Below are positions 2,524-61,570 of a stretch of 64,000 bases of DNA, in pieces. The DNA is taken from positions 263,720-327,719 of the forward strand of contig CAVQOJ010000003.1 in the NCBI GenBank assembly GCA_963714385.1, read 5' to 3'. How positions within the stretch are numbered: position 1 is the first letter of the stretch; the number at the start of each line of letters is the position of its first letter. Below the pieces are notes generated by a model that ran no database searches, was not told where the DNA came from, and saw only the letters and a program-made list of their open reading frames with translations. The stretch comes from an uncultured Holophagae bacterium. Lineage in GTDB: Bacteria > Acidobacteriota > Thermoanaerobaculia > Thermoanaerobaculales > Sulfomarinibacteraceae. A program made the position numbers and the translations under genes.

Positions 2524-5500
2524 TCAATCGGGTGCTTTCCCCAGCGGCAGCTTGAGGGCGGGATCGGTGACCGCACCGATCTTGGCGGCGAAGCTGGTCC
2601 GGCGAGTGATGTCGTCGTCGGTGACGAAGTGCACGTCGAGCAGCCTGCGGCTCCGGTAACCCGTCCGCAGGTAGTTGATTTCGCCAAGGCAGAGGCTCCA
2701 CCCGTCGAGCCAGGTCTTGAGGTCTCGCTGTTGATCCGCGGAACCGTTGACATGGATCAGCAGGTCGATGTCCGACGACGGGCCAGCGCTGGCGTTCTTG
2801 GTGCTGCCGATGACGTAGAAGGCCTTCACGCCGAAGCGCTCAGCGTCGATTTCCCGCCCGATCTGCTCGGCCATCCGCATCCGCCACCGCCAGAACCCGC
2901 CGGGCCGTTCGGGTGTTTGACCTCCGGGGCGGGAATCGGAGGTACCGCGCCCGGCCTCGGGATCAGCGAGGAATCCGACGGCTTCGTCGAGATCCGCGTT
3001 CATCAGGACGCGCAGCACCCGTCCGTGCGACGACATGGGGACGTCGATCACCCGGACCACCGACTCGAGGTGGGCGTACTCCGGCGCCATTTCGGCCAGG
3101 AGGTTGGGCGCCCGGAGCAGGAAACGCTGGTTGAGAACTCCGGCCGAATCGTCGGGGTAGAGCGGGATGTACCTGATGGACGACTCCACCAGATCCTGGA
3201 AGAAGTGGGTTCCGAAGGAGAGATCGGGCACGTAGCTGCCCTTTTGACGGGCGATCTCGACCAGCACAGCGGTGTTGTTGATGTCCGAGTAGGTGACGTT
3301 GACGCCCATCCGGATGTCGCCGCGACTGCCCCAGCGGCCCGGCCCCATGAGGATGAACTGGCGTTTCGGCAGGACCTTGTTGAGCTTGCCGACCGCCTGG
3401 CCGACCGCGACCAGGTCGGCCCGTTCCGGCAGGGCGCCGTAGCCGTCAGGGTCGACGTAGACGATATGGGTGATGTCCGGAACCCAGCCGTTGGAAATGT
3501 AGCGGTTGGCCCGGAAGACCTTGTCTTCCTCGGCGATGTCCATCGGGATGGGGGCAGGAGTGTCCTGGGCCGAGTAGCTCTGGGGCCGGCATTGGAGGAG
3601 GTAGAAATCACTGCCGTCGAAGGCGAACTCGATGTCCACCGGGGTGCCGAGGTGCTCCTCCAGGATTTTGAGGATGTTGCCCACGTCACGAACGAAGGAG
3701 GTGTCCGAGATCAGCCCGTTGAAGTCGGCGACCAGCTCGTCTCGTTCGGGATCCACCAACACCGGCACCGCCCTCCGAAGGGTGTCGTCCTCGAGCACCG
3801 AGAAGACCTTGTCGAAGGCCGGATACGCGCCCCCGCACGATCGGAGGAGGTCCTTGATGCTCATTGTCTCGAAGCAGTTTGTGGTCAGGTTGAGGACGTC
3901 GATCTGGGTGGGCGAGTAGCGAATGGTCTCGTCGATGGTGGTGTTGACTCGGAGGCTCGGCTGCCCCGGAACCGCCAGGATCGGATAGTCGTCGCTGACC
4001 CGGTCGACGGCGCGCGTGCCGAGGCCGGGGACCAGCCGCAGCAGGCCGTCTTCGCGCTGGATTCGCGGCGACCAGCGGAACTCGTTGTTGGAGAAGGCCA
4101 CCCCGGCCAGGGCCGGGAAGAAGTAATCGCCGACCCGGCGTCCGACCACCTCCTGGATCAGCACCGCCATCTCCTCGTGAAAGTCGAGCAGGCCCTTCTC
4201 CCTTCGGTAGGCGATCGGATCGGGTCCGAAGATGGACGCGTAGACCTCGGTGATGGCGTCGAGCACGGCGCGCAGCCGCTCCGATTTGTCGCCCTGATTG
4301 GCCAGGAACAGGCTCTTGTACTTACCCGAGAAGGCGGAGCCCATCCGATCCTCGAGCAGGCTCGACGAGCGCACGATGAGAGGGTTCTCTCCGACCTCGT
4401 CCAACAGCATGGACAGGCCGCGGACGATGTCGGGTGGGAAGCGGGAGCTTTTGAACAGCTTGACGATGTTGGGGTACTCATGCCTGACCTGCTGGATCTC
4501 GCGGTACTTCTGTTGGAGAACCTCCTCGAGGTCGTTGTACTCGATGAAGTTCATGATCTCTTCGGAAGCCACGTACCAGCTTCGAGGCACCTTGACGGTG
4601 CCTACGGATCGGTCTTCATCCTGGAGTTTGGTCAGGATCTTCTGTGCGAGGAAGAGCCCGGAGGTCTTGCCGCCCAGCTTGCCGTAGCTGTCGGAGGACA
4701 GGATGACGTGGTCGAGCAGGTCGAGGAAGTCGCTGATGTCGAGGACCTCCTTGGCGACGGTGATGAGCTCGAGCTGCTCGGTGAGGAACCGTCGGATGAG
4801 GGCGACGGTCAGGCCGTCGACGGTGGACCGCGACAGCTCAGTGCCGCCGGACACGAGGTGGTGAAAGCGCTGCAAGCTCTCCGAGACCTCGGGAAGTGAG
4901 GACCTCGGGTTGTTGAGCACCTTCGGCAGGAAGCTGGCGTTGTCCTCGACGATCCACCCCTGGATCAGGTTGAACACTTCGTTGTGGCCGAGCACCGACG
5001 ACGCCAGCTCGAAAGGTCTGCCCCCCAGGAGCATTGGCTCGTTGATTCGACCCACCGGACCGGGGACATTGACCTCACCCGTGACACCCTGTGCCGGCTC
5101 CACCTCCCCGTACATTTCCTCGAGCAGCGCCTGGGATCCGTCGACACCGGCCCACCGCAGGTGGTTGACCATCTTGCGGGCGATCCGCAGGTAGAGCTTG
5201 CGGTCCGTGTGGCGGAGCAGGTCGATGGGACCCCGCCAACGGTCGGCCACCTGATCCTCGGTGTCCATTCCGGCGGTGGTCCACTCCAGCCGCATGTCGC
5301 GGAGCCGCTGGTAGAGAATGAAGTGTCCGATCCGCTCGGCGATGGTCCGGATCAGCCGCTCTTCCTCCTTCAGGAACGGCCCGATGTCCTCCCGGGGGCG
5401 CTCCTCGAGATAGCAGACGGTGAGGCTGCCAACCACCTCGTCCTGGGTGGTGATCGACGTGGTTTGCTCCCAGGGGGTGGAGCGAAAATCGGGGCTTTGA

Positions 5501-5712
5501 AACAGGCGGTCGCCGTAATGGATCTTCGCCCGGCAAACGTCGGGGTACTGCCAGCCGGGGGGAATCGCCTTCACCACGGCCTGGAGGGCCTCGTCCAGCG
5601 GGCGGTCGAGCTGGCCGAAGATCTGCTCGACCTCGTACAGGCAGTTCAGCTCCTTGGCGCGCTCCTGGAGGGATGCCAACAGCTTTTCGACCGGCCGTTC
5701 GGAGTCAGTCAT
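2524..5712 (-). CDS. PEP/pyruvate-binding (PPDK_N ATP-grasp) protein with C-terminal nucleotidyltransferase domain
   Basis: 1062-aa ORF. Central GGKTSGLFLA ... VRSSSLLEDRMGSAFSGKYKS block is PPDK_N-like. The LMGPGRWGSRGD ... SFGTHFFQDL block is shared with two paralogues in this window. C-terminal FYVIGSTKNASAGPSSDIDLLIHV is a minimal nucleotidyltransferase motif. No phosphohistidine swivel motif seen. Overlaps the upstream gene by 8 nt. Confidence 0.75.
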   Translation of the reverse strand: MTDSERPVEKLLASLQERAKELNCLYEVEQIFGQLDRPLDEALQAVVKAIPPGWQYPDVCRAKIHYGDRLFQSPDFRSTPWEQTTSITTQDEVVGSLTVCYLEERPREDIGPFLKEEERLIRTIAERIGHFILYQRLRDMRLEWTTAGMDTEDQVADRWRGPIDLLRHTDRKLYLRIARKMVNHLRWAGVDGSQALLEEMYGEVEPAQGVTGEVNVPGPVGRINEPMLLGGRPFELASSVLGHNEVFNLIQGWIVEDNASFLPKVLNNPRSSLPEVSESLQRFHHLVSGGTELSRSTVDGLTVALIRRFLTEQLELITVAKEVLDISDFLDLLDHVILSSDSYGKLGGKTSGLFLAQKILTKLQDEDRSVGTVKVPRSWYVASEEIMNFIEYNDLEEVLQQKYREIQQVRHEYPNIVKLFKSSRFPPDIVRGLSMLLDEVGENPLIVRSSSLLEDRMGSAFSGKYKSLFLANQGDKSERLRAVLDAITEVYASIFGPDPIAYRREKGLLDFHEEMAVLIQEVVGRRVGDYFFPALAGVAFSNNEFRWSPRIQREDGLLRLVPGLGTRAVDRVSDDYPILAVPGQPSLRVNTTIDETIRYSPTQIDVLNLTTNCFETMSIKDLLRSCGGAYPAFDKVFSVLEDDTLRRAVPVLVDPERDELVADFNGLISDTSFVRDVGNILKILEEHLGTPVDIEFAFDGSDFYLLQCRPQSYSAQDTPAPIPMDIAEEDKVFRANRYISNGWVPDITHIVYVDPDGYGALPERADLVAVGQAVGKLNKVLPKRQFILMGPGRWGSRGDIRMGVNVTYSDINNTAVLVEIARQKGSYVPDLSFGTHFFQDLVESSIRYIPLYPDDSAGVLNQRFLLRAPNLLAEMAPEYAHLESVVRVIDVPMSSHGRVLRVLMNADLDEAVGFLADPEAGRGTSDSRPGGQTPERPGGFWRWRMRMAEQIGREIDAERFGVKAFYVIGSTKNASAGPSSDIDLLIHVNGSADQQRDLKTWLDGWSLCLGEINYLRTGYRSRRLLDVHFVTDDDITRRTSFAAKIGAVTDPALKLPLGKAPD

Positions 5713-7453
5713 GGCGGGTCATCACTCCCCGTCCCCGGCTCCCGTCGACGCGGACGCCGAGAGGTTTGGGGACTCTGACGTGACGGATGTTGTCGGTTTC
5801 GAAGACGGCGGGTTGCGACTCCAGCCATGCCCAGTCGACGGTGCCCGGGCGGTGGTGCTCGACGGCGAGGCAGAGCACCTGGAAGCTGAGCACGTTGTGG
5901 AAGAAGTGCGAGCCCTGGCTGAGGTCCGGGTCGATCTCGGGGGTCGTGACCTCGATGATGACCCTGGCGCCGCTGATCTGTCCCCAGGCCACCGGAACGC
6001 CGAGCCGCTCGTCGGAGGTGCCCCAGCGGCCGAAGCCCAGCAGAACGTACCGGCGCCCGTCGGCGAGCAGGTTCCGATTGATCGTCTCCAGGTCCCGGGC
6101 CATGATCGAGGTAGAGCGGGGATCGAAGGCGTCCGGGCGGATGTAGACGATGTCTCTGATGTCGTGGAGCTCGCCGTTGCCGAGCACCCTGGTGGACGAA
6201 ATCACCACGTTGTCGCCGGTCAGATCGGCATCTTCGACGCGCACTTCCTCGAGGCCCACCCGCATCGGCCGAACCTGGAGAAACCCGAATCGCGCGGGCA
6301 GGAGATCTGTGCGATGGAGGCGCACGGCGAACTCGATCTCGACGTCGGCCCCCAGCGACGCCTTCGAGTGGTTCAGCAGATCGGTGATCAGGCTGACGAA
6401 GCCATCCCACCGCGAGCCGATCAGGGGGGCGAAGGTGAGGGCTCTCGGCCCTCGACCCCCCATTCCGGGGTTGATCCGGTCGGAACCTCCATCGTAGGTG
6501 GAGACGACGTGGTTGAGGGAGCCGTCCGCTTCCGCCTCCTTGAGGCCGGGCCGCACCAGGTACTCGGTCTCCCGCACCGGGTCGGGCAGCGGCGGGTCCC
6601 CCATGTGAACCGCCCAGAACTCCCGCTGGGTGTTCTTGAGCAGGTCGCCGACGTCGTTGAAGGGCGGCGGCGCAGCCGGCGCCGAGGGCGAGAAACCCCA
6701 GCACAGGCCGCCGTCGACGATGGTCTTGCCCAGCCCGAGCGCCAGATAGACCACGCCCTCATCGCCCCGAGCGCGGCCGGTGGGGTAGAAGTTGAACGAG
6801 CGCGCCACCCCGGACACGGTTGGGTAGAAACGGTCACCGACGCGCTCGCCGATCACCTCCTGAACGATCACCGCCATTTCCTCTGCCGGCGTGTCGTGGC
6901 CGAGGGCACGGTGGTAATCCCGGGCGGCGGAGAAGAAGGTGCTCGCATAGACGAACTTCACCGCCTCCGCCAGGCGGCGGAACCTGGCATCCTCCTCGAT
7001 CTCGTTGTTGGGGATCATCTTGGTGGCGTAGACCCCGGCAAAGGGGTGGCGAAGGTCGTCCTCGAGCAGGCTCGACGAGCGAACCGCCAGTGGAGTGTGG
7101 ACCGACGAGATTAGGCCTCGCAGGTCGCCCACCAGCTCGGCGGGGAGCTCGGCTCGTTGGAAGGCGTGGGCGATGCGGTCATCCGAGACGTCGGACGTCA
7201 CCACGGGGCGGAGTTGGTTTTGATCCATGAAGGCGCGGAACAGATCGGTGGAGATCACGGTCATTGTCGGCACCGTGACGGTGATCCCGGGATACTTCCC
7301 CTGATCAAGCCGGGGGAGGATGTCCGCGTCGATCAGACGCAGGCCGCTCGCCTTGCCGCCGAGTGCACCCGTACCGATCCGGGTGAGGGTCTCACCGGTC
7401 TCGGTGAAGGTGCGATCGAACCGCGGGATGTCCCGCGACGGGTCCTTCGTCAT
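5705..7453 (-). CDS. PEP/pyruvate-binding (PPDK_N ATP-grasp) domain protein, no swivel domain
   Basis: 582-aa ORF with GALGGKASGLRLI and LAVRSSSLLEDDLRHPFAGVYATK, followed by the C-terminal LLGFGRWGTSDERLGVPVAWGQIS ... SQGSHFFHNV block. Confidence 0.75.
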   Translation of the reverse strand: MTKDPSRDIPRFDRTFTETGETLTRIGTGALGGKASGLRLIDADILPRLDQGKYPGITVTVPTMTVISTDLFRAFMDQNQLRPVVTSDVSDDRIAHAFQRAELPAELVGDLRGLISSVHTPLAVRSSSLLEDDLRHPFAGVYATKMIPNNEIEEDARFRRLAEAVKFVYASTFFSAARDYHRALGHDTPAEEMAVIVQEVIGERVGDRFYPTVSGVARSFNFYPTGRARGDEGVVYLALGLGKTIVDGGLCWGFSPSAPAAPPPFNDVGDLLKNTQREFWAVHMGDPPLPDPVRETEYLVRPGLKEAEADGSLNHVVSTYDGGSDRINPGMGGRGPRALTFAPLIGSRWDGFVSLITDLLNHSKASLGADVEIEFAVRLHRTDLLPARFGFLQVRPMRVGLEEVRVEDADLTGDNVVISSTRVLGNGELHDIRDIVYIRPDAFDPRSTSIMARDLETINRNLLADGRRYVLLGFGRWGTSDERLGVPVAWGQISGARVIIEVTTPEIDPDLSQGSHFFHNVLSFQVLCLAVEHHRPGTVDWAWLESQPAVFETDNIRHVRVPKPLGVRVDGSRGRGVMTRHD

Positions 7454-7533
7454 GACCTGTCCAGGGTGCGGTCGAGACAGAACGATGTCAAGCAGAGGGC
7501 TCGCACCGTACGAGCGGAATGACCTTCCGAGCG

Positions 7534-7561
7534 AGTCAAAAGTCGAAAGTCGAAAGTCAAA
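7534..7561. repeat. period-7 array AGTCAAA AGTCGAA AGTCGAA AGTCAAA
   Basis: Four units in exact register. Left arm of an inverted pair with 7607..7641. Confidence 0.9.
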
Positions 7562-7606
7562 AATCCATTGACTCGGGTCGAATCAGCAAGGACGAGCGGC
7601 AACCAG

Positions 7607-7641
7607 GACTTTAGACTTTGGGCTTTAGACTTTAGACTTTT
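7607..7641. repeat. period-7 array GACTTTA GACTTTG GGCTTTA GACTTTA GACTTTT
   Basis: Five units, reverse-complementary in 6 of 7 positions per unit to the 7534..7561 array. The spacer between the arms is 45 nt. Confidence 0.9.
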
Positions 7642-7653
7642 TTCTCGAGAAGT

Positions 7654-8941
7654 TCAGACCCACCCGCGTTCATAGCACAGAGTGGCGACCCGATCGACGG
7701 CGATGACCAGGGCGGCCTCGCGCATGGTAAGCCCCTTTTTGCGGCTGAGCTCGGAGACCGCGATGAACGCCGAGGTGATCTGGCGGTCGAGCTTGGAGAG
7801 GATCTCGTCGAGCCGCCAGTAGTAGTTCATGGCGCCCTGGACCTGCTCGAAGTACGAGCAGGTGACGCCGCCGCCGTTGGCCAGGATGTCCGGAATGATG
7901 AAAACACCGCGATCGAGCAGAATCTGCTCGGCGGCCGGGGTGGTGGGTCCGTTGGCGCCCTCGGCGACGATCCGGACCGTCGACCGAACCCGGACTACGT
8001 TGTCGGCGGTGATCTGATGCTCCAGGGCGGCGGGAATCAGAATCTCCACCTCCTGCTCGAGCCAGGCATCGCCCGCCAGCACTTCATACCCGAGCTTCGA
8101 CGCCTTGTCGCGGTCGATGTCGCCGAGACGGTCCGAGGCTTCTCGGAGCTCCGCGAGGTCGACGCCACCGTTCTTGCGGAACGCCACCGCCTCGCCGCGA
8201 CCGTGATCCCAGCACGAAACGCACACCACGGCTGCCGCCGATCCGCTGATAGAGCTCGATGGCGTGCTGGGCCACGTTGCCGAATCCCTGCACCGATGCG
8301 GTGGTGGCGGCAGGGTCGAGGCCGACCTCCTTGAGCGCCTCGCGAAGGGTGTAGACCAACCCGTAGCCGGTGGCTTCGGGCCGTCCCAGGGAGCCTCCGG
8401 CACCGATGGTCTTGCCGGTGAGCGAACCGGGAGCGTGCTCGCCCAGCACCGTCTCGTACTCGTCGAGCATCCAGGTCATGTGCTGGGCTGTGGACATGAT
8501 GTCGCGCGACGGCACGTCGCGGCCCGGACCGAGGTAGCGGGCGGTCTTGCGGACCCAGGCGCGGCAAAGCCGCTCCTGCTCCGCCGGGCTCAGCCGGTGG
8601 GGGTCGCACAAGACTCCGCCCATGCTGCCGCCGAGAGGCAGGTCCAAAAGCGCGGTCTTCCAGGTCATCCACATGGCCAGAGCCCTGATGGTGTCGATGG
8701 TCTCGAGGGGGTGGAAGCGGACGCCGCCCCAGAATGGGCCCCGCACGTCGTTGTGCTGCACCCGGTGCCCCCTGAAGACCTCGACCTTGCCGTTGTCCAT
8801 TTTCACCGGCAGGGCGAAGTGGTGCTCGTGCAAGGGGGATCGTAGGAGCTGCCGCACCGGCTCGTCGAGTCCCATCAGGTCGGCCGTGTTGTCGAACTGG
8901 GTCTGGGCGACTGCGAAGGCATTGAAAACGGTGTCGTTCAT
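7654..8941 (-). pseudogene. Glu/Leu/Phe/Val dehydrogenase family gene interrupted by one frameshift (or an assembly indel)
   Basis: N-terminal half lies in ORF 8084..9067 from ATG 8941 (MNDTVFNAF ... [13 protein letters not shown] ... [22 protein letters not shown]). C-terminal half lies in ORF 7654..8403 (AAVVCVS ... [46 protein letters not shown]). The frames meet near 8232..8245, and skipping one nt restores a single ~428-aa protein. Confidence 0.75.
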
Positions 8942-9023
8942 CGGGATGGACCCCCTCGGAGCGATGATGGCACATCTTGAGAACGGGGGTGGAGAGAGTA
9001 TGGGGGTGGGGAGGGTGAAGGAG

Positions 9024-9051
9024 GAAATTCGAAATTCGGAATTCGAATTCC
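9024..9051. repeat. period-7 array GAAATTC GAAATTC GGAATTC GAATTCC, preceded by a G-box
   Basis: Four units in register. G tracts at 8985-89, 9002-06, 9008-11 and 9013-15 lie immediately upstream. Confidence 0.85.
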
Positions 9052-9066
9052 GAGTATGGAGTAACA

Positions 9067-9092
9067 AAACGGCGGCCCGAAGGCCGCCGTTT
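9067..9092 (-). terminator. hairpin terminator downstream of gdhA
   Basis: AAACGGCGGCC cgaa GGCCGCCGTTT: perfect 11-bp stem with a 4-nt loop, 21 nt after the gdhA stop. On the minus strand it is followed by TGTT. Confidence 0.6.
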
Positions 9093-9112
9093 GATTCGAG
9101 CCGATTTTAAGA

Positions 9113-10531
<1,419 letters not shown>

Positions 10532-10706
10532 TCAGATGACAGCGTGATGATCCGAGTTTCGAGCGACGACTCTTCGGTCGGGGGCAGGTGAGGAACGCGG
10601 GTTCGTGACGAAAGCTGGAGTGGACGCTCCATGGCCAGCGAGGATACTCTTGCGGCCCAACGATGACAACCGGGGGATTTGGCGACTGTCGATAGCCCGC
10701 CCCCCG

Positions 10707-13685
10707 TCAGTCGGCGGCACCCTCGAGAATCACCCCGCGGCCGGAGGCGCCGTCGACCAGAACCTGCGCCGGCCGCTCCAGCCGGATGTGCCTGATGACG
10801 CCGTCGAGCAAGGTGGCGACTGTATCCTGGCCGTCGAACCACGGCCAGTTGACGGTACCCTGATCGCAGTGCGCGTGAACCGCAAAAAATGCGACGCCAA
10901 AGCAGGTGAGGTTGTGGAAGAAATGCGATCCCAGTGAGGGTTCGACCTGCAGATCGTAGAAATCGGTCTCGACGATCGCCCTGACGGAGGAGATCTGGGG
11001 CCAGGTGACCGGAATCCCGAGCCACGGGTCCCTGGATCCCCAACGGCCGGGGCCGATCAGAATGCTATGGCGACCCTCCAGCCGGAGGCTTCGATTGAGG
11101 GCCTCGATGGCGCTCGCAGCCTGGGCGGTGGCGGCGCGGTCGAAGCCGTCCGGGTGAATCAAAATGACGTCGGAGATGGTCTCTCTCCGGCCGTGGCCGA
11201 GGGCCATCTCGGACCGCACCAGAGCTTTTTCCAGGGTTTTCGGATCGAGGTGGATCTCGACGTTCATGTCCTCCACCACCAACGGCCGGAGCTGAAGAAC
11301 GTGGAGGGTTTGGATTCGGCCCAGGCCGGGCTCGATGTCGGCGGCGAACTCGATCTCCACCGGGCTGGCCAAGCCTTCGGCGCAGGCCGGCAACAGCCGG
11401 CGCAGCACCTCCGGAAGCGGCAGGATCCTGCCCTTCAGGATGGGCCCGAAGGTGATCAGGGGGGTGCCGCCGTCTTCCAAACCGACGGTGACCCTGTCGT
11501 CCGCACGTCGATAGGTGGAGACGATGGCGTTGGCGGCGCCGTCGGCGATGGCCACGGAGGTCTCCATGTGGACCAGGTTGGCGTCGGGTTCGAGACCGGG
11601 CAGGACGTCGCCGCGTGACATGTCCAGGGCGTAGAACCGTCGCTGGGCGTTGCGCAACATGTCGGGGACCGAGGAAAACTGGGGCAACGACTGAGGGTAG
11701 GCCGGCGAGAACCGGAGCGCCTCGAAGCCCTCGACCACGCTCTTGCCGAGACCGAGGGCCACCTGGGCGACCCCGTCCTCGGGCGTCATGTTGCCGAAGG
11801 GGTAGAAGTTGTAGGACGAGGCGACGCCGGACAGGGTGGGGTAGAAGTGGTCACCCCATCGCCGGCCGACCAGACGTTGGACCAGCACCGCCATCACCTC
11901 CTCCTCGATCCGGTAGGGGGTGGTTTCGATGTAGGCTCGCGAGTGCCGGAAGTAGGTGGAGGCGAACACGGTCTTGACCGCCTCGAGCAGCTGAGCCAGC
12001 CGAACATCGAGCGAGGGGTGGGTGTTGGGCAGCATGATGGTCGAGTAGACGCCGGCAAACGGCTGGTACACCGAGTCTTCGAGAATGCTCGACGACCGAA
12101 CCGCCAGCGGATCGTGGTTGGACTCGAGAAAAGCGATCAGCTGCGAGACCAGGCCCGGCGCGAAGCGGCCGCTGCGAAACTCGTCGAGGATCTCCGCGTC
12201 GGTCAGCAGATCGGCCTCGAGGGCCAACCGCCGCAGGTCGTTTCCGTCCAGGAAATCCTCGAAGACATCGGAGGCGAGCACCACGGTCTGCGGGACCGAC
12301 ACCCGGACGCCCGCCGTCTCCAGATCACCGGTGGCCAGCAGCTTGTGCATGAAGGCCAGGCCTCGGCCCTTGCCGCCGAGGGACCCGGTTCCGATTCTGG
12401 CGAAGGCCACAAAACGGTCGTAGGTCGCGGGGTCGAAATCAGTGATGACGTGGCTCTGGATGTCCCGGAGATAGGTGGTGATGGTCTGGATGAGGAACTG
12501 GCGGAGCTCGGCGGACGAGGCAAACTCGGAGACCTTGCGCGGCCGCATCGCCGACGCCAGCTCGAACTCGGTTCGCGCTTTCAACCATGCCGAGAAGTGG
12601 TTGCGGCTGGCGTGGTACACCAGCGACTGGTCGGGCATGGATTCGAGCAGGTGGAGCATTTCGCGCATGTCCTTGGCGCGGGCGATAGGTTTGCCGTCGG
12701 GGAACTTGAAGACGAAATCACCGAACCCGAAGTGGTCCTGGATGAAGTGGCGGAGGTCCTCGAGCAGGGTGGCCGACTTCTTCCACACGAACTCGGCGTT
12801 CACCTCGATCGCCTGCGGCTCGTGGGTCTTGTCCGCCGATTGCAGCAGGATCGGCAGGTCTTCGTCCTCCGATCGAATCTTGCGGGCGAGCTCGATGCCG
12901 GCGAGCTCGTCCAGCTTGCCGCCGCGCGGAAAGGAGACGTCGCAGATGACGCCCAGGATGTTCTTGCCGTACTTGCGGTACAGCTCCCACGCCTCCTCCC
13001 AGGTCTGTGCGAGCAGGATTTTGGGCCGCGCCCTGATCCGCAGCATGCGGTGTGAGAGGTTGAGGCCGTCGGCCATCAGCCGGCTGGTCTGGGAGGTGAC
13101 CTCGGTGTAGATCTGGGGGAGGTAGGCCGAGTAGGCGCGCACGTCGTCCTCGATGATGACGATCGCCTGGACCCCGCCCTCGAGGATGTCGTGGTCGGCA
13201 TTGCGGCGGTCTTCGACCTGCTTGATCATGGCCAGTAGGGCCTGGACGTTGCCCTGCCAGAGGAAGACCCAGTCGACGGCACCGGTCGATCTGAGCTCTT
13301 CCAACCACGGCAGCTCCCAGGCGTGGGCCGCCACCAGTCCAACCGGGATTTCCGGCTCGATCTCCCGCAACCGTTGGACGAAATCCACAGGCTCGGTGTC
13401 CTGCAGCCGTGGGGTGGTGATCACCATGTCGAAGTCGCGTTCCTGAACGTACTTGCAGGCCTCTGCGGCGGAGGAAACCCGAGTGAAACGTGGCGCGTAG
13501 CGCAGGTTCAGGTCGAGATTCCGGTACTCTTCGAAGACCAACTCGGTGAGCTGCCCGTCCTCCTCCAGCACGAAGGCGTCGTAGTGGGAGGCCACCAGCA
13601 GGATTTCGATGATCCGGTGCTTCATCAGCGCCGAGAACTCCTCGGTGCGCATTCCGTAGCGGCTGGACAGCTCGAGTGGGGCCAT
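10707..13685 (-). CDS. receiver-domain protein fused to a PEP/pyruvate-binding (PPDK_N ATP-grasp) module
   Basis: ORF 10707..13913 trimmed to ATG 13685, because the upstream 76 codons read through the GAATTCG array. Two receiver-like N-terminal modules come first. They are followed by GSLGGKGRGLAFM, LAVRSSSILEDSVYQPFAGVYST and the GPGRWGSRDPWLGIPVTWPQIS ... SLGSHFFHNL block shared with 5705..7453. Confidence 0.75.
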   Translation of the reverse strand: MAPLELSSRYGMRTEEFSALMKHRIIEILLVASHYDAFVLEEDGQLTELVFEEYRNLDLNLRYAPRFTRVSSAAEACKYVQERDFDMVITTPRLQDTEPVDFVQRLREIEPEIPVGLVAAHAWELPWLEELRSTGAVDWVFLWQGNVQALLAMIKQVEDRRNADHDILEGGVQAIVIIEDDVRAYSAYLPQIYTEVTSQTSRLMADGLNLSHRMLRIRARPKILLAQTWEEAWELYRKYGKNILGVICDVSFPRGGKLDELAGIELARKIRSEDEDLPILLQSADKTHEPQAIEVNAEFVWKKSATLLEDLRHFIQDHFGFGDFVFKFPDGKPIARAKDMREMLHLLESMPDQSLVYHASRNHFSAWLKARTEFELASAMRPRKVSEFASSAELRQFLIQTITTYLRDIQSHVITDFDPATYDRFVAFARIGTGSLGGKGRGLAFMHKLLATGDLETAGVRVSVPQTVVLASDVFEDFLDGNDLRRLALEADLLTDAEILDEFRSGRFAPGLVSQLIAFLESNHDPLAVRSSSILEDSVYQPFAGVYSTIMLPNTHPSLDVRLAQLLEAVKTVFASTYFRHSRAYIETTPYRIEEEVMAVLVQRLVGRRWGDHFYPTLSGVASSYNFYPFGNMTPEDGVAQVALGLGKSVVEGFEALRFSPAYPQSLPQFSSVPDMLRNAQRRFYALDMSRGDVLPGLEPDANLVHMETSVAIADGAANAIVSTYRRADDRVTVGLEDGGTPLITFGPILKGRILPLPEVLRRLLPACAEGLASPVEIEFAADIEPGLGRIQTLHVLQLRPLVVEDMNVEIHLDPKTLEKALVRSEMALGHGRRETISDVILIHPDGFDRAATAQAASAIEALNRSLRLEGRHSILIGPGRWGSRDPWLGIPVTWPQISSVRAIVETDFYDLQVEPSLGSHFFHNLTCFGVAFFAVHAHCDQGTVNWPWFDGQDTVATLLDGVIRHIRLERPAQVLVDGASGRGVILEGAAD

Positions 13686-13719
13686 GACTCCGTCGAGATT
13701 ACCAGAAGCGGGGGGGAGT

Positions 13720-13754
13720 GAATTTGGAATTCGGAATTCGGAATTCGGAAAACC
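13720..13754. repeat. period-7 array GAATTTG GAATTCG x3 GAAAACC
   Basis: Five units in register with a G7 run at 13710-16. Lies 35 nt upstream of the ATG at 13685. Near-identical to 37689..37723 and 54166..54193 when read on the other strand. Confidence 0.9.
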
Positions 13755-13827
13755 GATCCCGAATCGCGGCGGGTCCGTCGATCGATTTCTTATGACCTGT
13801 GCGCAGCGAGAGGTAGAAATTCGATCG

Positions 13828-14952
<1,125 letters not shown>

Positions 14953-14980
14953 GGCGTGACCGCGGTGTCCAGATTGGGGC

Positions 14981-14998
14981 GTCAAACGCTAAAAGTCA
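14981..14998. repeat. left part of a period-7 array (GTCAAAC GCTAAAA GTCA) split by the 14999..15846 element
   Basis: It continues at 15847..15865 (AAAAGTCAAACGTCCGGA). Removing the element and one AAAAGTCA copy restores GTCAAAC GCTAAAA GTCAAAC GTCCGGA in exact register. Confidence 0.7.
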
Positions 14999-15197
14999 GG
15001 TTCATCCGGGAAAGCGTGAGGTCGAGTGATCCGTTTCCGACATTCAGGGTCAGCGGCCGCGTTCAGTGGCGGTGGCAGGGTTCAGCGGACAGCGACTGTG
15101 GGCGGTGATCAGGGGCAGCGACCGGGAACAGCGAGCAGGGACAGAGATCAGTCTTCAGCGGCAGCAATCAGTTGCATCGGCGGCCATAGCACGTGGA

Positions 15198-15339
15198 CAC
15201 CTTCGGATCGTTCAAAGGAACAAATCGCCGGCGGGCAGCCGATGTCAAGGGCAAGCCGGCCCACGGGTCCGGTGTTACACACCCTTGACATCGGCTGCCT
15301 CACCGGCTTGCGAGAGAGGGCATGAACGACCCGGAGGTG
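15198..15339 (+). promoter_or_regulatory. long nested hairpin covering the RBS and start codon of the four-helix-bundle ORF
   Basis: Inner perfect 17-bp stem GCAGCCGATGTCAAGGG (15235-51) with CCCTTGACATCGGCTGC (15282-98) and a 30-nt loop. Outer stem CACCTTCGGATCGTTCA (15198-214) with TGAACGACCCGGAGGTG (15323-39). The same architecture is conserved in copy 2 (21477..21618). Confidence 0.6.
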
Positions 15340-15693
15340 ACCATGTCCAAAGCCGTCGCGAACACCAACCTCGTTGCCCACGAGAAAGCCCTCGAAGCAG
15401 CAGGCATCGCCATCAAGCTCGTCATGAGGGTTCCTGCCCCATTAAAGTCGATTGCTGATCAGGTAATCCGGTCGGCGAGCTCGGTCCCGGCCAACCTGGC
15501 GGAAGGACACGGCCGATTCGGAAGAGACCGCCAGCACCACTGGAGGATCGCCTACGCCTCGGCCAAAGAGGTCGACAGCCACCTGCGACTCCTCGCTGCC
15601 GCCGGTGCAGTCAATGGAATCGGGGCAGAGAACGCCCTGGAGACCTTTGACCACGTTCGTGCGATGACGTGGCGCCTGCTCAATCCCATCTGA
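15322..15693 (+). CDS. four-helix-bundle protein (23S rRNA intervening-sequence protein / Avd-like family)
   Basis: 123-aa ORF. IADQVIRSASSVPANLAEGHGRFGRDRQHHWRIAYASAKEVDSHLRL matches the Q..RSA.S...N.AEG..R ... A.GS..E signature of this family. An alternative start is ATG 15343. Confidence 0.8.
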   Translation: MNDPEVTMSKAVANTNLVAHEKALEAAGIAIKLVMRVPAPLKSIADQVIRSASSVPANLAEGHGRFGRDRQHHWRIAYASAKEVDSHLRLLAAAGAVNGIGAENALETFDHVRAMTWRLLNPI

Positions 15694-15903
15694 GCGCGCC
15701 CGGTTCTCCGATGCTGACGCTGTCAACTGACGCCGTCCCTGATAGCCGCTTCCGCCCATGAAGCCGCGGTTCCTCTTCGGGCGGGCGGGTGCAGTTGTGA
15801 AATCCGATCTCGATCGACCCCCATCTCACCGAATTCCAGATGAGCCAAAAGTCAAACGTCCGGAATCGTCTGAGACGACCCGGCGGATCTCGGCGACCTC
15901 GAA

Positions 15904-15938
15904 CGTTTAACCTTTAACCTGTAACGTTTAACGTTATA
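15904..15938. repeat. period-7 array CGTTTAA CCTTTAA CCTGTAA CGTTTAA CGTTATA
   Basis: Five units in register, ending 10 nt from the aceF stop codon (15949). Confidence 0.85.
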
Positions 15939-21248: not shown

Positions 21249-21250
21249 GG

Positions 21251-21296
21251 GTTGAAGGCTGGAAGTTGAAAGTTGAAAGTTCCCGCCCTCCCTCCC
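21251..21296. repeat. period-7 array (GTTGAAG GCTGGAA GTTGAAA GTTGAAA GTT) fused to the C-box CCCGCCCTCCCTCCC
   Basis: The array starts 3 nt after the stop codon at 21246-48. The C-box at 21282..21296 is GGGAGGGAGGGCGGG on the other strand, a canonical four-tract G-quadruplex motif. Confidence 0.9.
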
Positions 21297-21316: not shown

Positions 21317-21866
21317 GGTTCATCCGGGAAAGCGTGAGGTCGGGGTTCTGCCGTGCCCGTGCCCGGAATGCAGCGGCTGCGACAGTATTCAGCGGCAGCG
21401 ACCGGGAACAGCGATCAGGGACAGCAATCAGTATTCAGGGGCAGCAATCAGTTGTCTTGGCGGAATAGCACATGGACACCTCCGGGTCGTTCAAAGGAAG
21501 GAGTAGCCGGTGGGCAGCCGATGTCAAGGGCAAGCCGGCCCACGGGTCCGGTGTTACACACCCTTGACATCGGTTGCCTCACCGGCTTGTGAGGGAGGGC
21601 ATGAACGACCCGGAGGTGACCATGTCCAAAGCCGTCACGAACACCAACCTCGTTGCCTAGCGCCTGCTCAATCCCATCTGAGCGCACCCTGCTCTCCGAT
21701 ACTGACGCTGTCAACTGACGCTGCCGCGGGTCCCCGCCGCTGGCTTCTGACGCTGTCCCTGATTGCTGATTCCCCGGATGAAGCCGCGGTTCCTCTTCGG
21801 GCGAGCAGGTGCCGTTGTGAACTCCGAACTCGATCGACCCCCACCTCACGGAATTTCGGATGAGCC
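21317..21866 (+). mobile_element. degenerate second copy of the intervening-sequence-like element (ORF core deleted)
   Basis: Termini GGTTCATCCGGGAAAGCGTGAGGTCGGGGT and ..ACCCCCACCTCACGGAATTTCGGATGAGCC are about 23/30 complementary. Collinear with 14999..15846 but lacks ~290 bp: ..AACCTCGTTGCC joins directly to CGCCTGCTCAATCCCATCTGA, leaving an in-frame TAG. Confidence 0.6.
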
Positions 21867-21867
21867 C

Positions 21868-21916
21868 AACTTTCAACTTTCAACTTTCAACCGGGGGGGT
21901 GGGTGGGGGGGCTGGG
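21868..21916. repeat. period-7 array AACTTTC x3 fused to the G-box GGGGGGGTGGGTGGGGGGGCTGGG
   Basis: Units at 21868-74, 75-81 and 82-88. G-box at 21893..21916. The array is the reverse complement of the GTTGAAA array at 21251..21281. Confidence 0.9.
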
Positions 21917-31258: not shown

Positions 31259-32584
31259 GTGCTGACTGCAGACCGCCGTGGGCGGATCCTGAGCCTCGCC
31301 CTGCCGATCATCGGGGGCATGGCGTCTCAGAACGTGCTCAACCTGGTGGATACAGCCATGGTGGGACTTCTGGGCGCCGCGCCGCTGGCTGCGGTGGGCA
31401 TGGCGAGCTTCGCCAACTTCATGGCCGCAGCCTTCATCATGGGTCTGTCGGCCGGGGTTCAGGCGATGGCGGCGCGACGCCTCGGCGAGGACCGTCACTC
31501 AGAGACCGCGGTGCCCTTGAATGGGGGCCTCCTGCTGGCGCTGGTGGTGGCCGTTCCGTGGTCGATGCTGTTGATCGCAGAAAGTGCAAGTTTCTTCCCG
31601 TTCCTGGTGGCCGACCCGGAAGTGGTGGCGCACGGCGTTCCCTATCTCCAGGCCAGACTGGTCGCGATGGTGGCGCTGGCGATGAACTTCTCCTTCCGGG
31701 GCTATTGGAACGGTGTCGGACTGTCCAAGGTTTACATGCGCACCCTGATCGTGATGCACGCCACCAACATCGTGTTGAACTGGGTGCTGATCTTCGGTCA
31801 CCTGGGCTTCCCCGCGCTTGGCGCCACCGGTGCTGGGGTCGCGTCGGCCATCTCTACCTTCGTCGGCACCGGGTTGTACCTGTACCAGGGCTCGCGGATC
31901 GCGCGGGACAACGGTTTTCTGCGCGGCCTGCCCGACCGTTCGACCATCTTCACCATGCTCAGGCTGTCGGTCCCGGCCGGGATCCAGCAGTTCTTTTTCG
32001 CGGCCGGGATGACGGCACTGTTCTGGATTCTCGGTCGCATCGGGACGGCGGAGCTCGCCGCATCCAACGTGCTGGTTCAGCTGCTCCTGGTGGCCATCCT
32101 CCCGGGCATCGGATTCGGCATGGCGTCGGCCTCCCTGGTCGGGCAGGCGCTGGGCAGAGGCGACCCCGAGGGCGCCCGGGCCTGGGCTTGGGATGTGGTG
32201 CGGCTGGGCGTCGCCACGGTCGGGGCCATTTCCCTGCTCGGCCTCGTGTTTCCCGATTTCCTGCTCGGCTTCTTTCTTCACGACCCGGTGACCTTGGCTT
32301 TGGCCCGCACCCCGCTTCGCATCCTCGCCGTTGCGATGTGGGTGGACACCATCGGCCTCGTACTGCTCAACTCGTTGCTCGGAGCCGGCGACTCGAGGCG
32401 GGTGATGATGGTGACGGTGTCCCTGCAGTGGCTGATTTTTCTGCCGACTGCCTGGGTGCTCGGTGCACAGCTGGGGGTCGGGATGACCGCGGTGTGGGTC
32501 GCCCACGCGGTCTACCGGGGGCTGCAGAGCCTGGTCTTCATCTCCATGTGGCAGGGTCGCAGGTGGACCGAGATATCTCTGTGA
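31259..32584 (+). CDS. MATE-family efflux transporter
   Basis: 441 aa, ~12 hydrophobic segments. N-terminal [27 protein letters not shown] is the typical MATE signature. Confidence 0.85.
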
Positions 32585-32615
32585 AACGTGAAAAATGAAC
32601 GGTGAAAAGTGGGAC
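32581..32615. repeat. period-7 array GTGAAAC GTGAAAA ATGAACG GTGAAAA GTGGGAC
   Basis: Starts on the MATE stop codon (TGA 32582-84). Left arm of an inverted pair with 32644..32674. Confidence 0.85.
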
Positions 32616-32643
32616 CAGATTGGTGACGTTCCAAATGCCATGT

Positions 32644-32674
32644 CACATTTCACTTTTCACGTTTCACTTTCACG
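32644..32674. repeat. period-7 array CACATTT CACTTTT CACGTTT CACTTT CACG
   Basis: Reverse complement of the GTGAAAA array. The 28-nt spacer is CAGATTGGTGACGTTCCAAATGCCATGT. Confidence 0.85.
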
Positions 32675-32814
32675 TCGCGATTGCCGCAGCGTGGCTTTCG
32701 CCGGCACGGCGACGGGTGGTACCCTGCCCGGCGCCGGTCAAACGGCTCACTCAATTGGGGTTCTGCGGTGTTCGCGGCCTGCGGGTGCGCGTCGATTCGA
32801 GAGGATGGAGCGAG

Positions 32815-33836: not shown

Positions 33837-33871
33837 AGTCAAAAGTTAAAGTCAAAAGTCTAAAGTCCGAG
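33837..33871. repeat. period-7 array AGTCAAA AGTTAAA GTCAAAA GTCTAAA GTCCGAG
   Basis: Starts 6 nt after the oleA stop. The leader GCGGAGTCAAAAGT is also found after the murB stop (63194..). Left arm of an inverted pair with 33910..33944. Confidence 0.85.
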
Positions 33872-37688: not shown

Positions 37689-37723
37689 GGTTTTCCGAAT
37701 TCCAGATTCCGAATTCCGAATTT
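37689..37723. repeat. period-7 array GGTTTTC CGAATTC CAGATTC CGAATTC CGAATTT
   Basis: Five units in register, ~120 nt upstream of mdh. Same family as 13720..13754 and 54153..54193. Confidence 0.9.
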
Positions 37724-44465: not shown

Positions 44466-44502
44466 TCGACCCTGCTCATCTGCTTTCTGCTGCTGTCGGC
44501 GA

Positions 44503-44541
44503 GTTGAAAGTTGAAAGTTGAAAGTTCCCGCCCGCCCACCC
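44503..44541. repeat. period-7 array GTTGAAA x3 GTT fused to the C-box CCCGCCCGCCCACCC
   Basis: Units at 44503-09, 10-16 and 17-23. C-box at 44527..44541 (GGGTGGGCGGGCGGG on the other strand). The ~50-nt segment from CTGCTGCTGTCGG onward is homologous to 61524..61570. Confidence 0.9.
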
Positions 44542-44574: not shown

Positions 44575-44730
44575 GACGGCGGCAGTCTTCAGCGTCAGCC
44601 TCCAGAATGGCCGGTGCAGAGAGTTCCAATCAGAATTCTGGGTTGAACGACCCGGAGGTGGTCATTTGCTGTGCCGACAAGGCAACTGATCGCTGCCGCT
44701 GAAGACTGATCTCTGTCCCTGCCGCTGCAG
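44575..44730 (-). mobile_element. relic fragment of the intervening-sequence-like element
   Basis: 44682..44722 is the reverse complement of 15135..15175 at about 40/41 identity (GCAGGGACAGAGATCAGTCTTCAGCGGCAGCRATCAGTTGC). 44643..44660 (TTGAACGACCCGGAGGTG) matches the outer-stem / ORF-start sequence. No TIRs, hairpin core or ORF remain. Confidence 0.5.
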
Positions 44731-44742
44731 TTCGGACGCCGA

Positions 44743-44777
44743 CAATTCGCAATCCGCAATCCGCAATTCGTAATCCA
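44743..44777. repeat. period-7 array CAATTCG CAATCCG CAATCCG CAATTCG TAATCCA
   Basis: Five units in register, ending 7 nt from the M16 peptidase stop codon (44785). Confidence 0.9.
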
Positions 44778-54152: not shown

Positions 54153-54193
54153 CGTTTTCGAATTCGGTTTTCCGAATTCCGAATTCCGAATTT
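54153..54193. repeat. period-7 array CGTTTTC GAATTC GGTTTTC CGAATTC CGAATTC CGAATTT
   Basis: 54166..54193 is near-identical to 37689..37723 and to the reverse complement of 13720..13754. Lies between the gloB stop and the GATase start. Confidence 0.9.
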
Positions 54194-61396: not shown

Positions 61397-61456
61397 GCGG
61401 TCCTCCAAGGGCGGGCATTGTACAAGGTCCGCGGGATGTCGGCACGCCGACGGAAG

Positions 61457-61512
61457 CAGTTGGCCGTTAGCCGTTGGCCGTTAGCAGTTAGCCGTTGGCA
61501 GTTTACGGTGTC
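61457..61512. repeat. period-7 array, 8 units (CAGTTGG CCGTTAG CCGTTGG CCGTTAG CAGTTAG CCGTTGG CAGTTTA CGGTGTC)
   Basis: Longest array in the window. Its reverse complement family (AACGGCC / AACTGCC) lies at 61992..62026. Confidence 0.9.
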
Positions 61513-61539
61513 GCAGCCGTTGGCTGCTGCTGTCGGTGA

Positions 61540-61570
61540 GTTGGAAATTGAACGTTCCGCCCGCCCTCCC
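61540..61570. repeat. period-7 units GTTGGAA ATTGAAC GTT fused to the C-box CCGCCCGCCCTCCC
   Basis: Homologous to 44503..44541 and 21265..21296, including the upstream CTGCTGCTGTCGG segment. Confidence 0.8.

Follow-up and report, generated by a model that had tools for sequence, protein, structure and literature searches.

The 848-bp element at positions 14999–15846 of the window (the whole stretch of DNA analysed, 64 kb long) is probably a non-autonomous, ISL3-family "mobile insertion cassette", in which two 24-nt terminal inverted repeats (TIRs) surround a passenger module without a transposase. I place the probability of this reading at about 0.8. An earlier note on this DNA had likened the element to a 23S rRNA intervening sequence (IVS). 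That likeness holds for the gene family it carries and for its hairpin-like arms, but its termini are ISL3 insertion-sequence ends and probably not an IVS-type RNA stem. As the same ends bound ISL3 transposase genes, the element is best read as an ISL3 cassette, and not as an rRNA intervening sequence.

Organization of the element

Reading of the sequence places the 24-nt inverted termini at residues 14999–15022 and 15823–15846, abutted by 8-mers that are identical at 8/8 positions. The features of the element, and of two further copies in the window, are listed below.

14991–14998 (no strand): left copy of the 8-bp target-site duplication, AAAAGTCA (direct reading; family-wide statistics)
14999–15022 (+): left terminal inverted repeat, GGTTCATCCGGGAAAGCGTGAGGT, an ISL3-type end (23/24 match to one ISL3 end of contig L127)
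15023–15191 (+): left arm, made up of degenerate repeats of 6/7 nt (CAGCGAC, CAGGGAC, CAGCGGC) whose type is complementary to that of the right arm
15192–15214 (+): anti-Shine-Dalgarno (CACCTTC) strand, 5' side of the start-region helix (inverted repeats I9 and I12)
15227–15307 (+): leader hairpin, with conserved TGTCAAGGG/CCCTTGACA atop the stem and a variable loop (covariation)
15322–15693 (+): four-helix-bundle protein gene, PF05635/TIGR02436 (ORF list, profiles, AF2 model, dN/dS)
15323–15345 (+): 3' strand of the helix burying the ribosome-binding site and both candidate starts (inverted repeats, pairing)
15694–15822 (+): right arm, CTGACGCTGTC.. and GTCCCTG..-type units, the complement of the left-arm units
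15823–15846 (−): right terminal inverted repeat, reading ATCTCACCGAATTCCAGATGAGCC on the + strand, with 3 differences from the family consensus ACCTCACGGAATTCCGGATGAGCC
15847–15854 (no strand): right copy of the 8-bp target-site duplication, AAAAGTCA (direct reading)
21317–21866 (+): second cassette copy, with the same termini and an internally deleted ORF (the equivalent of ~15379–15671 is missing) (D1 94%, D4 85%, I4)
44580–44722 (−): remnant of a third copy, left arm and anti-Shine-Dalgarno strand only, between two heptad arrays (inverted matches I1 and I2)

The flanking 8-mers are thus where the earlier note had placed them. Its argument from the heptad register holds as well: since the duplication equals 1 modulo 7, the heptad frame is restored when the element and one copy are removed. 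The sole sizeable ORF within the element is the 123-aa gene at 15322–15693 (+), and the element is, as had been claimed, devoid of a transposase, a reverse transcriptase or a homing endonuclease. A MITE in the strict sense (under about 600 bp, non-coding) was considered and rejected, as the element is 848 bp long and carries a selected ORF; only derivatives such as 21317–21866 come near.

Copies, duplications and target sites

I gathered 4149 homologous proteins, and in GTDB genomes the loci that encode them number more than 460. The 80 loci kept all come from Holophagae, Thermoanaerobaculia or Ca. Sulfomarinibacteraceae MAGs, and dozens of family copies lie between unrelated genes. Across 35 full copies, the 8-mers abutting the element have a mean identity of 6.26/8, are perfect in 9 cases and match at 7/8 or better in 21, while flank identity is 4.1–4.4 at offsets of ±7 (the heptad echo) and 1.1–2.9 at other offsets. 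Where models of an 8-bp and a 1-bp duplication differ, the copies favor 8 bp over 1 bp (10 to 3). In some copies, such as L038 and L045, the duplication is perfect even though no array lies on the left. About 6 of the 35 copies show no recognizable duplication, including the second copy in the window, whose flanks are inverted heptads. The direct reading and the 35-copy statistics together bear out the earlier note's claim of a mobile element with inverted termini and an 8-bp duplication, and the further duplication-flanked copies that it proposed to look for are found.

In the 21 well-preserved duplications the target is N-AA-NN-TT-N, approximately RAACGTTY, with A at positions 2–3 and T at positions 6–7 almost invariably. 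The same motif abuts 29 of 44 independent TIR ends in metagenome contigs, versus a background of 0.2%. Reconstructed empty sites have a lag-7 self-identity of 0.53, versus 0.27 in the background. Copies probably sit in heptad arrays because AT-rich target sites are concentrated in the short intergenic heptad arrays of this GC-rich genome. The earlier note's statement that the element chose a heptad array therefore holds as to location, but the array is "chosen" since it repeats the AACGTT-like palindrome preferred by the transposase. About 19 short intergenic arrays of 7-nt units of this type are present in the 64-kb window, often as convergent inverted pairs.

The earlier note had also suggested looking for empty sites in relatives. 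In one related genome, L082, the same intergenic region (E2/TolB-like) is 248 bp long and contains arrays only, without the element. Sampled copies are 85–97% identical to each other, and since the closest pair reaches just 97%, there is no sign of very recent movement. In contigs of four sediment metagenomes, which are too fragmented to span the junctions, the family ORF is found at greater depth than its flanks.

The same module is also found within a second, unrelated type of ends (CACTGCTGTCCAAAACAG), with 9-bp duplications. These ends were seen only around cassettes and one 456-bp derivative, and no transposase was found for them. Around copies having neither end type, a search for a third kind of ends gave nothing above noise. 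I also considered whether the heptad arrays could be excision footprints (8 + 8 − 1 = 15); that the second end type makes 9-bp duplications, yet sits in period-7 arrays, argues against the simple version of this idea.

The termini and ISL3 insertion sequences

The same 24-nt termini bound complete 1.3-kb insertion sequences with an ISL3 DDE transposase, in the metagenome contigs L086 (1307 bp) and L127 (1304 bp). Their ends are of the type GGCTCATCCGG(A/G)AAA(A/G)CGTGAGGT, and the window TIRs agree with them over 21–24 nt. The ORF of these elements matches PF01610 (DDE_Tnp_ISL3) at 1.1e-71, as well as HTH_Tnp_ISL3. Both elements adjoin AACGTT-type arrays, with flanks matching at 5/8 and 6/8 positions; duplications of 8 bp are usual for ISL3 elements. 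Many different cargoes are found between these same ends.

In the alignment of the termini 91.9% of cells pair, but the covariation score is 0.064 versus 0.063 in shuffles, with no compensatory changes, and a third of the copies have uncompensated changes at positions 21–22. The termini thus appear to act as protein sites, and not as an RNA stem.

The ISL3 transposase is absent from the 64-kb window (tblastn) and from the ~430 kb sampled around the 80 MAG copies. Among homologues of the L086 transposase, the closest ones all come from short contigs, and none is on the large contigs of this genome. I infer that the cassette is mobilized in trans, and that this happened in this genome: an ISL3 DDE transposase made elsewhere would bind both cassette ends, and insertion would follow an 8-bp staggered cut at an AT-rich palindromic N-AA-NN-TT-N site, RAACGTTY being the best. 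The mobility of the cassette would then be ordinary trans-mobilization.

In several respects the element resembles known ISL3-type cassettes: its TIRs begin with GG, it makes an 8-bp duplication, it is multicopy, it lacks an internal transposase, and its ends match those of PF01610 elements. It differs from these in its passenger, a structured and conserved module that holds a selected four-helix-bundle gene and is present in dozens of copies per genome, in having inverted short-period arrays inside its ends, and in that the same module occurs in a second, unrelated pair of ends.

The passenger module

The 123-aa ORF matches PF05635 with 53.2 bits (cut-off 33.8) and TIGR02436 with 53.4 bits (cut-off 24), and its true start is likely the second ATG at 15343, with GGAGGTG ahead of it at 15333–15339. 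The AF2 monomer model (pLDDT 90.3) is a four-helix up-down bundle (helices 4–34, 42–63, 67–93 and 99–120) like 2GSC and 2RLD, which are the best PDB matches in Foldseek (TM 0.78–0.86 with an rmsd of 1.5–1.7, and TM 0.75–0.86, respectively). The retroelement protein Avd (PDB 4DWL, 8UB7) shares the four-helix-bundle fold (TM 0.73–0.84), but is only ~11% identical; homology between PF05635 and Avd has been stated (PMC10053308). The earlier note's placement of the ORF in the IVS-protein/Avd fold family, for which it had proposed an HMM search, is therefore supported by both profiles and fold. An exact-sequence look-up of the 123-aa and 116-aa forms of the ORF, and of the best match, returned no record. 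A diversity-generating retroelement was considered and rejected, as no reverse transcriptase is among the genes called at the syntenic loci of relatives.

Among paralogues dN/dS is 0.13–0.15, at dS 0.38–0.45, and 64 of 82 loci retain an ORF of 122–125 codons. The leader hairpin has a perfect 18-bp core (15234–15251 with 15282–15299), with compensatory double changes in 10 of 25 pairs and a covariation score of 0.164, versus 0.078 in shuffles, a value reached by 0 of 500 shuffles. Helix 1, between the anti-Shine-Dalgarno strand and the start region, is paired at 92.5% in 49 distinct copies, and shows no covariation because its 3' strand is coding sequence. The leader structure may gate translation of the protein. 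A scan for sigma-70 promoters found none; a TTGACA lies in the hairpin, with no usable −10 box.

The earlier note had described the upstream third of the element as quasi-heptadic. This region is indeed repetitive, but it is a mixture of 6- and 7-nt CAGCGAC/CAGGGAC-type units, with autocorrelation peaks at lags 6, 7 and 13 (65 copies); in the window copy, TRF reports a period of 13 at 15110–15144. The left arm and the reverse-complemented right arm have 8–9 8-mers in common, versus 0.8 in direct orientation. Copy-specific co-evolution of the arms was considered and rejected, cognate arms sharing 9.3 8-mers and non-cognate arms 8.1, with uniform ranks. Taken together, the passenger is a conserved unit of its own, made of inverted arms of 6–7-nt units, a covarying leader hairpin, a helix sequestering the ribosome-binding site, and an ORF under strong purifying selection. 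A dN/dS of 0.13 over dozens of copies is unlike that of a passive passenger, and a view of the ORF as mere cargo is probably incomplete.

Four-helix-bundle genes, heptamer arrays and other transposons

Short-period arrays, most of them heptads, likewise lie on both sides of four-helix-bundle genes carried by plasmids of cyanobacteria and Riemerella. A 2.57-kb element of Nostoc PCC 7120 (pCC7120gamma 12962–15527) is bounded by ISL3-type ends, with inverted (GGCAGAG)n arrays in subterminal position, and encloses both an ISL3 transposase (636 aa) and a four-helix-bundle gene. Further copies or derivatives of it are found at other sites in other plasmids, and deleted derivatives and solo ends exist. 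This Nostoc/Calothrix element is like the cassette in its ISL3-type ends, its subterminal inverted 7-nt arrays and the four-helix-bundle gene inside the ends, but it is autonomous, its ends read GGTTCTTGGCAACTTTTGGTGATC, and the proteins are ~30% identical. No clear duplication was seen at the three sites read.

Heptameric repeats have been reported to be over-represented between genes in Xanthomonas (GGGAATC) and Nostoc (GGGGAYT) (PMC4692102), and TAACTGA repeats in Beggiatoaceae and cyanobacteria (PMC4679880). Neither study links the arrays to four-helix-bundle genes or transposons, whereas in the present case arrays both serve as insertion targets and flank the gene.

A possible role for the protein

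The protein is a putative nucleic-acid-binding oligomer, which I infer to be tied to the persistence of its own element; its putative target is most likely the repeat arms or the leader hairpin. A stronger version of this idea, which I consider possible but rather unlikely, is that it is an active partner in the life of the element: bound to the subterminal arrays or the leader hairpin, it would serve as an accessory factor, with catalysis still left to an ISL3 transposase. Such binding would assist in pairing the ends, in choosing a target, in regulating transposition or in retaining the element. The purifying selection across paralogues would be explained, as would the occurrence of one module between two unrelated types of ends, which duplicate 8 bp and 9 bp, respectively. 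Two distant ISL3 lineages, with transposases ~30% identical, are tied to four-helix-bundle genes in two phyla, and both have inverted short-period arrays just inside their ends. All 10 sampled plasmid homologues are flanked by short-period arrays (heptads in 7), the Coxiella IVS has (GACAGAT)3-4 ahead of its ORF (PMC4990558), and the relative Avd, whose fold matches, is a pentamer that binds RNA and reverse transcriptase (PMC10053308). However, targeting can do without this gene, since L086 and L127 have none and are nonetheless found in AACGTT arrays; copies without the ORF persist, and cognate arms are no more complementary than non-cognate ones.

More speculative again is the proposal that four-helix-bundle (IVS-protein/Avd-like) genes and short-period, mostly heptameric, arrays form one widespread, so far unlinked system. 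Here, a putative array-binding protein (of DNA or RNA) would be encoded by modules of gene and arms, carried by ISL3-type and other transposons or moving next to them; rRNA IVSs would be modules that landed in rRNA, and part of the unexplained excess of intergenic heptamers in Xanthomonas, Nostocales, Beggiatoaceae and these Acidobacteriota would be traces or landing pads. I regard this as rather unlikely.

Comparison with rRNA intervening sequences

Like the IVSs of Leptospira and Coxiella (PMC4990558), the cassette encodes a protein of the same family, between complementary flanks able to form a long stem, and short tandem repeats precede the ORF in both (GACAGAT heptamers in Coxiella, CAGCGAC- or GACAGGG-type units here). 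The differences are that the cassette lies outside rRNA, has transposon ends and a target duplication, and is multicopy. In addition, its ORF is clearly under selection, while that of Coxiella is described as decaying (PMC4990558). None of the copies examined is within or close to an rRNA gene; IVSs are located in 23S rRNA helix 9, 25 or 45. That these are transposon remnants, or that the ORF is needed for mobility, are still cited as hypotheses (PMC4990558).

It could be argued that the element is itself an IVS-like RNA element, with termini and arms forming a stem cut by RNase III, and spreading through an RNA intermediate. The whole element does fold as a long imperfect hairpin on either strand (z = −5.6 and −4.3), its ORF family is common to the Leptospira and Coxiella IVSs, family members are present in metatranscriptome contigs, and several cyanobacterial homologues lie between genes of one operon. 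Nonetheless, I consider this reading very improbable. No rRNA or Rfam family was identified at gathering thresholds in the window or at 20 other loci (permissive searches gave generic, below-threshold hairpins), nor any rRNA motif in 618 kb. The termini lack covariation, and the same ends bound ISL3 transposase genes; duplicating 8 bp at a palindromic target is what characterizes a DDE transposase. Beside the element no reverse transcriptase is called. Synteny is conserved in relatives, with pyruvate dehydrogenase E1, E2, TolB-like and PPDK-like genes as neighbors. Processing of the arms by RNase III after transcription is possible.

Finally, that the element is not mobile, but an ancestral intergenic repeat with a regulatory or structural role, its duplication merely resulting from the periodic array, is already disfavored and hardly credible. 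In the related genomes L083 and L084 the same intergenic region does hold, in the same orientation, a copy lacking the ORF and a remnant with one end, respectively, and copies are not near-identical. Against this, the identity of the abutting 8-mers far exceeds the heptad echo, perfect duplications are also seen without an array on the left, dozens of copies lie between unrelated genes, the element is missing from L082, and the same ends carry varied cargoes.

Significance

The role of the ORFs carried by 23S rRNA intervening sequences, and the way in which the sequences themselves move, have been open questions since the early 1990s. In the ISL3 cassette described here, the same gene family is caught between genuine transposon ends that have target duplications; the copies number in the hundreds, selection on the protein is measurable, and the leader structure covaries. 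The cassette offers a specific and testable mechanism for the spread of such genes. Large paralogous families of small TIGR02436 proteins exist, and the cassette offers a lead on why they do, as well as on the over-representation of heptamer repeats in some bacterial genomes.

Transposon ends of the element

Direct reading of the window confirms the inverted termini and the 8-bp duplication that an earlier note had described, with 848 bp enclosed by the two AAAAGTCA copies and three changes in the right end of this copy. The element, and further copies in the window, comprise the following features:

14991-14998 and 15847-15854: 8-bp target-site duplication AAAAGTCA, read from the sequence
14999-15022: left end GGTTCATCCGGGAAAGCGTGAGGT, one half of an imperfect 24-nt inverted repeat
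15823-15846: right end ATCTCACCGAATTCCAGATGAGCC, the other half
15322-15693, + strand: sole credible ORF in the element
21317-21866: second cassette copy with the same ends, ORF mostly deleted
about 44580-44722, opposite strand: cassette remnant

Metagenome contigs were scanned with the 24-nt end, yielding 43 contigs with many different interiors. Two contigs hold complete elements, L086 (1307 bp) and L127 (1304 bp), with matching ends around a transposase ORF (DDE_Tnp_ISL3 at 1.1e-71, HTH_Tnp_ISL3 also matched), and AACGTT-type arrays adjoin both; a third contig, L117, includes the end of another such ISL3 element. The end sequence therefore defines ISL3 elements and their transposase-less derivatives, and the window element is one of these derivatives, carrying a passenger. 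The term "mobile insertion cassette", in the vocabulary of PMC3129680, fits it. Other interiors found in ISL3-type ends (contigs L085, L097, L100, L105, L108, L111, L123 and L125) include an IS200-like Y1 transposase (L105), an IS110-type gene that is probably nested (L100), arrays with C-rich boxes, and repeated GCCCCGAAGGGGCGACAGAT hairpins.

The two ends pair in 92% of cells, and their covariation is no higher than in shuffles; left-end positions 21-22 are changed in a third of the copies, and the right end never compensates. In sequence terms, the ends thus behave less like a maintained stem than like putative binding sites for a protein.

No ISL3 transposase was found in the window, nor in roughly 430 kb around 80 copies from metagenome-assembled genomes (MAGs), and close homologues of the L086 enzyme occur only on short contigs. 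The closest sampled copies are 97% identical, and the right end of the window copy is changed. I infer that the ISL3-type cassette was moved in trans; its family could be inactive here.

Target duplication and heptad arrays

The 8-mers abutting the element were compared for 35 full copies with both ends present.

Identity of abutting 8-mers (n = 35)
Offset 0: mean 6.26/8; 9 perfect, 21 at 7/8 or better
Offset +/-7, where an echo of the heptad array is expected: mean 4.1-4.4
Remaining offsets: mean 1.1-2.9

Where the cases discriminate between an 8-bp and a 1-bp duplication, 8 bp is correct in 10 and 1 bp in 3. The duplication is genuine and 8 bp long. Mobility, as the earlier note proposed, is upheld by these family-wide duplications together with the ISL3-type ends, and the further copies with 8-bp duplications and heptad targets that it called for exist.

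The duplicated octamers follow a common palindromic, AT-rich pattern, N-A-A-(C/A)-N-T-T-N, which also adjoins 29 of 44 ends that an independent search identified in metagenome contigs (background 0.2%; consensus RAACGTTY). Period 7 is clear in the reconstructed empty sites, and arrays of AACGTTn, AACTTTC or AAAGTTG type offer one site per unit. Heptad arrays are thus targets because they repeat the preferred insertion site, in agreement with the target originally suggested; insertion would occur at RAACGTTY-like sites, multiplied by the arrays.

In about six copies, for instance the second window copy and copies L030, L035 and L047, the flanks are unrelated or inverted; such flanks might result if copies recombined with one another or were nested in palindromic repeats of another kind. 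Inverted modules of a heptad array plus a CCCGCCC box delimit a further repeat family, at 61455-62024 (the example at 61.5-62.0 kb encloses about 470 bp, including tgtcatcccgaacgagggccgaagggccgagg), at 21249-21296 with 21874-21908, and at 44502-44541. The second copy is nested between such modules, a possible reason why its flanks are inverted and not direct.

Although the genome is GC-rich, the 64-kb window contains about 19 short arrays that are AT-rich and built of 7-nt units, the unit differing for each. Several form inverted pairs, such as (AGTCAAA)n at 7534 opposite (GACTTTA)n at 7607, followed by a T run and terminator-like, and the C-rich box CCCGCCCGCCCACCC or its complement stands beside many of them. 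Arrays in the window are located at:

2462-2498, 7534-7640, 9024-9050, 13720-13750, 15902-15935, 21251-21281
21867-21891, 32581-32675, 33837-33867, 37693-37722, 44502-44526, 44743-44776
54153-54192, 56320-56353, 61455-61503, 63197-63244, 63884-63914

The four-helix-bundle protein and the cargo module

The ORF clears the curated thresholds of PF05635 ("23S rRNA-intervening sequence protein") and TIGR02436 ("four helix bundle protein"), and its model is a confident four-helix bundle (pLDDT 90.3), with XCC0516 (2GSC) and BT_0352 (2RLD, "S23 ribosomal protein family") as top structural matches, followed by Avd chains of the Bordetella phage retroelement. The assignment to this family is secure, as first read. 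The true start is probably the second ATG (15343), which a strong ribosome-binding site, GGAGGTG (15333-15339), precedes.

The window protein has 4149 database relatives, many of which, 93-97% identical, share a few megabase contigs. A scan of one genome per species gave more than 460 encoding loci; the 80 retained all belong to MAGs of Holophagae, Thermoanaerobaculia or "Ca. Sulfomarinibacteraceae", each genome carrying dozens. A passenger irrelevant to propagation is expected to drift. The ORF is intact in 64 of 82 loci, and dN/dS among paralogues is 0.13-0.15 at a dS of about 0.4.

In the left arm of the cargo, units of CAGCGAC/CAGGGAC type have a mixed period of 6 and 7, and the right arm has units complementary to these. 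Cognate arms fit no better than arms of other copies, so their complementarity stems from the common unit type. Two structures are predicted inside the ends:

15192-15214 paired with 15323-15345: start-burying helix, conserved in nearly all copies
15227-15307: leader hairpin, compensatory double changes in 10 of 25 pairs

The predicted start-burying helix hides the ribosome-binding site and both candidate start codons. In the hairpin, one position varies between A-U, U-A, G-C and C-G, and covariation is 0.164, against 0.078 in shuffles (none of 500 reaches 0.164) and 0.02-0.04 in slid controls. In contrast to the ends, this pattern of substitutions argues for a single-stranded structure, most simply RNA.

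In contigs of two sediment metatranscriptome runs (X20 and X22), a family member corresponding to 15103-15545 has an internal deletion fusing the left arm to the 3' half of the ORF. Metatranscriptome depth over family members peaks at the 5' end of the ORF, in contig data with possible DNA carry-over.

The same cargo module also occurs in another shell, in one Sulfomarinibacteraceae MAG (L040-L081), between ends CACTGCTGTCCAAAACAG and CTGTCTTGGACAAGAGTG, with 9-bp duplications in GGATGCA- or CTGGATG-type heptad arrays (L050 2155-3005; L069 2154-3015 and 3361-3816). One derivative, of 456 bp, lacks the ORF, and no transposase was found with these ends. That the cargo is conserved and found in two kinds of shell suggests some importance to the host or to the success of the element.

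The orthologous locus

Relatives keep the gene order PDH E1, E2, spacer, TolB-like, PPDK-like, and their TolB-like proteins are 76-79% identical. The spacer between the E2 and TolB-like genes differs among three syntenic loci:

L082: 248-bp spacer that lacks the element and contains only heptad arrays
L083: copy without the ORF, in unchanged orientation and at almost the same position
L084: one-ended remnant

As the duplication in the window is perfect and the ORF is 97% identical to paralogues in its own genome, the data point away from one ancient event and towards gene conversion or a separate, later insertion in the same hot spot.

Elsewhere in the window, about 3300-13900 comprises two or three tandem paralogues of a large PPDK_N-type gene with a response-regulator-like N-terminus. 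They share 65-80% DNA identity over stretches, with direct repeats at 4069/6776/11793, 7006/12023, 6019/11036 and others, spaced by 5017 and about 2700.

Plasmid homologues and a Nostoc ISL3 element

The sole plasmid match of the window protein is a Geminocystis gene located between inverted (GGGAAAA)n and (TTTTCCC)n arrays. Ten plasmid-borne homologues, nine cyanobacterial and one from Riemerella, were chosen before their sequence was seen. The plasmid loci sampled, L128-L138, are from Geminocystis, Nostoc, Calothrix, Pseudanabaena, Picosynechococcus, Leptolyngbya, Oscillatoria and Riemerella. In each of the ten homologues, short-period arrays begin no more than about 60 nt from start and stop; heptads are clear in seven and arms inverted in seven, with a unit specific to each locus. 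In the flanks, identity at lag 7 averages 0.45-0.51, compared to 0.36-0.40 for lags 6 and 8 and 0.25-0.33 for most others; inside the ORFs it is 0.26. Several of the genes are wedged within one operon, as in cas6|gene|cas4 and cas10|gene|cmr3. This gene-array association is a lead, from a small sample (n = 10) without matched control genes.

On plasmid gamma of Nostoc PCC 7120, a 2566-bp element that ends in GGTTCTTGGCAACTTTTGGTGATC, with inverted (GGCAGAG)n arrays in subterminal position, encodes a 636-aa ISL3 transposase and an adjacent four-helix-bundle gene (L140 663-3228, pCC7120gamma 12962-15527; further, L141 204-2507 and L142 201-1096). Copies or derivatives, some of them deleted, occupy different sites on plasmid alpha and in Calothrix and Nostoc HK-01, with many solo ends besides; no clear target duplication was seen at the three sites read. 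Since the transposase of this element and that of L086 share only about 30% identity, and its small protein and the window ORF 31%, the link between ISL3 and the four-helix bundle has arisen, or persisted, in two distant lineages.

Two reports of heptamer repeats, in Xanthomonas and Nostoc (PMC4692102) and in Beggiatoaceae (PMC4679880), do not mention this gene family. A more novel but less likely reading is that the protein would be an accessory factor of the element, within a wider system of such genes and heptad arrays.

Comparison with rRNA intervening sequences

The proposed likeness to 23S rRNA intervening sequences (IVS) stands for the gene family and the complementary flanks, but membership fails on location: no rRNA was found in the window, and none at 20 further loci or across 618 kb of retrieved sequence; the element has no Rfam match. 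IVS and cassette both encode a protein of this family, enclose the ORF by complementary flanks and have short tandem repeats 5' of it, the Coxiella IVS possessing three or four GACAGAT heptamers at this position (PMC4990558). The proposed mechanism of the cassette is conventional; the unusual part is its cargo and the association of this cargo with short-period arrays. For IVS, "remnant of a transposition event" and "ORF required for mobility" are open hypotheses (PMC4990558), and the cassette family is direct evidence for such modules riding the ends of DDE transposons.
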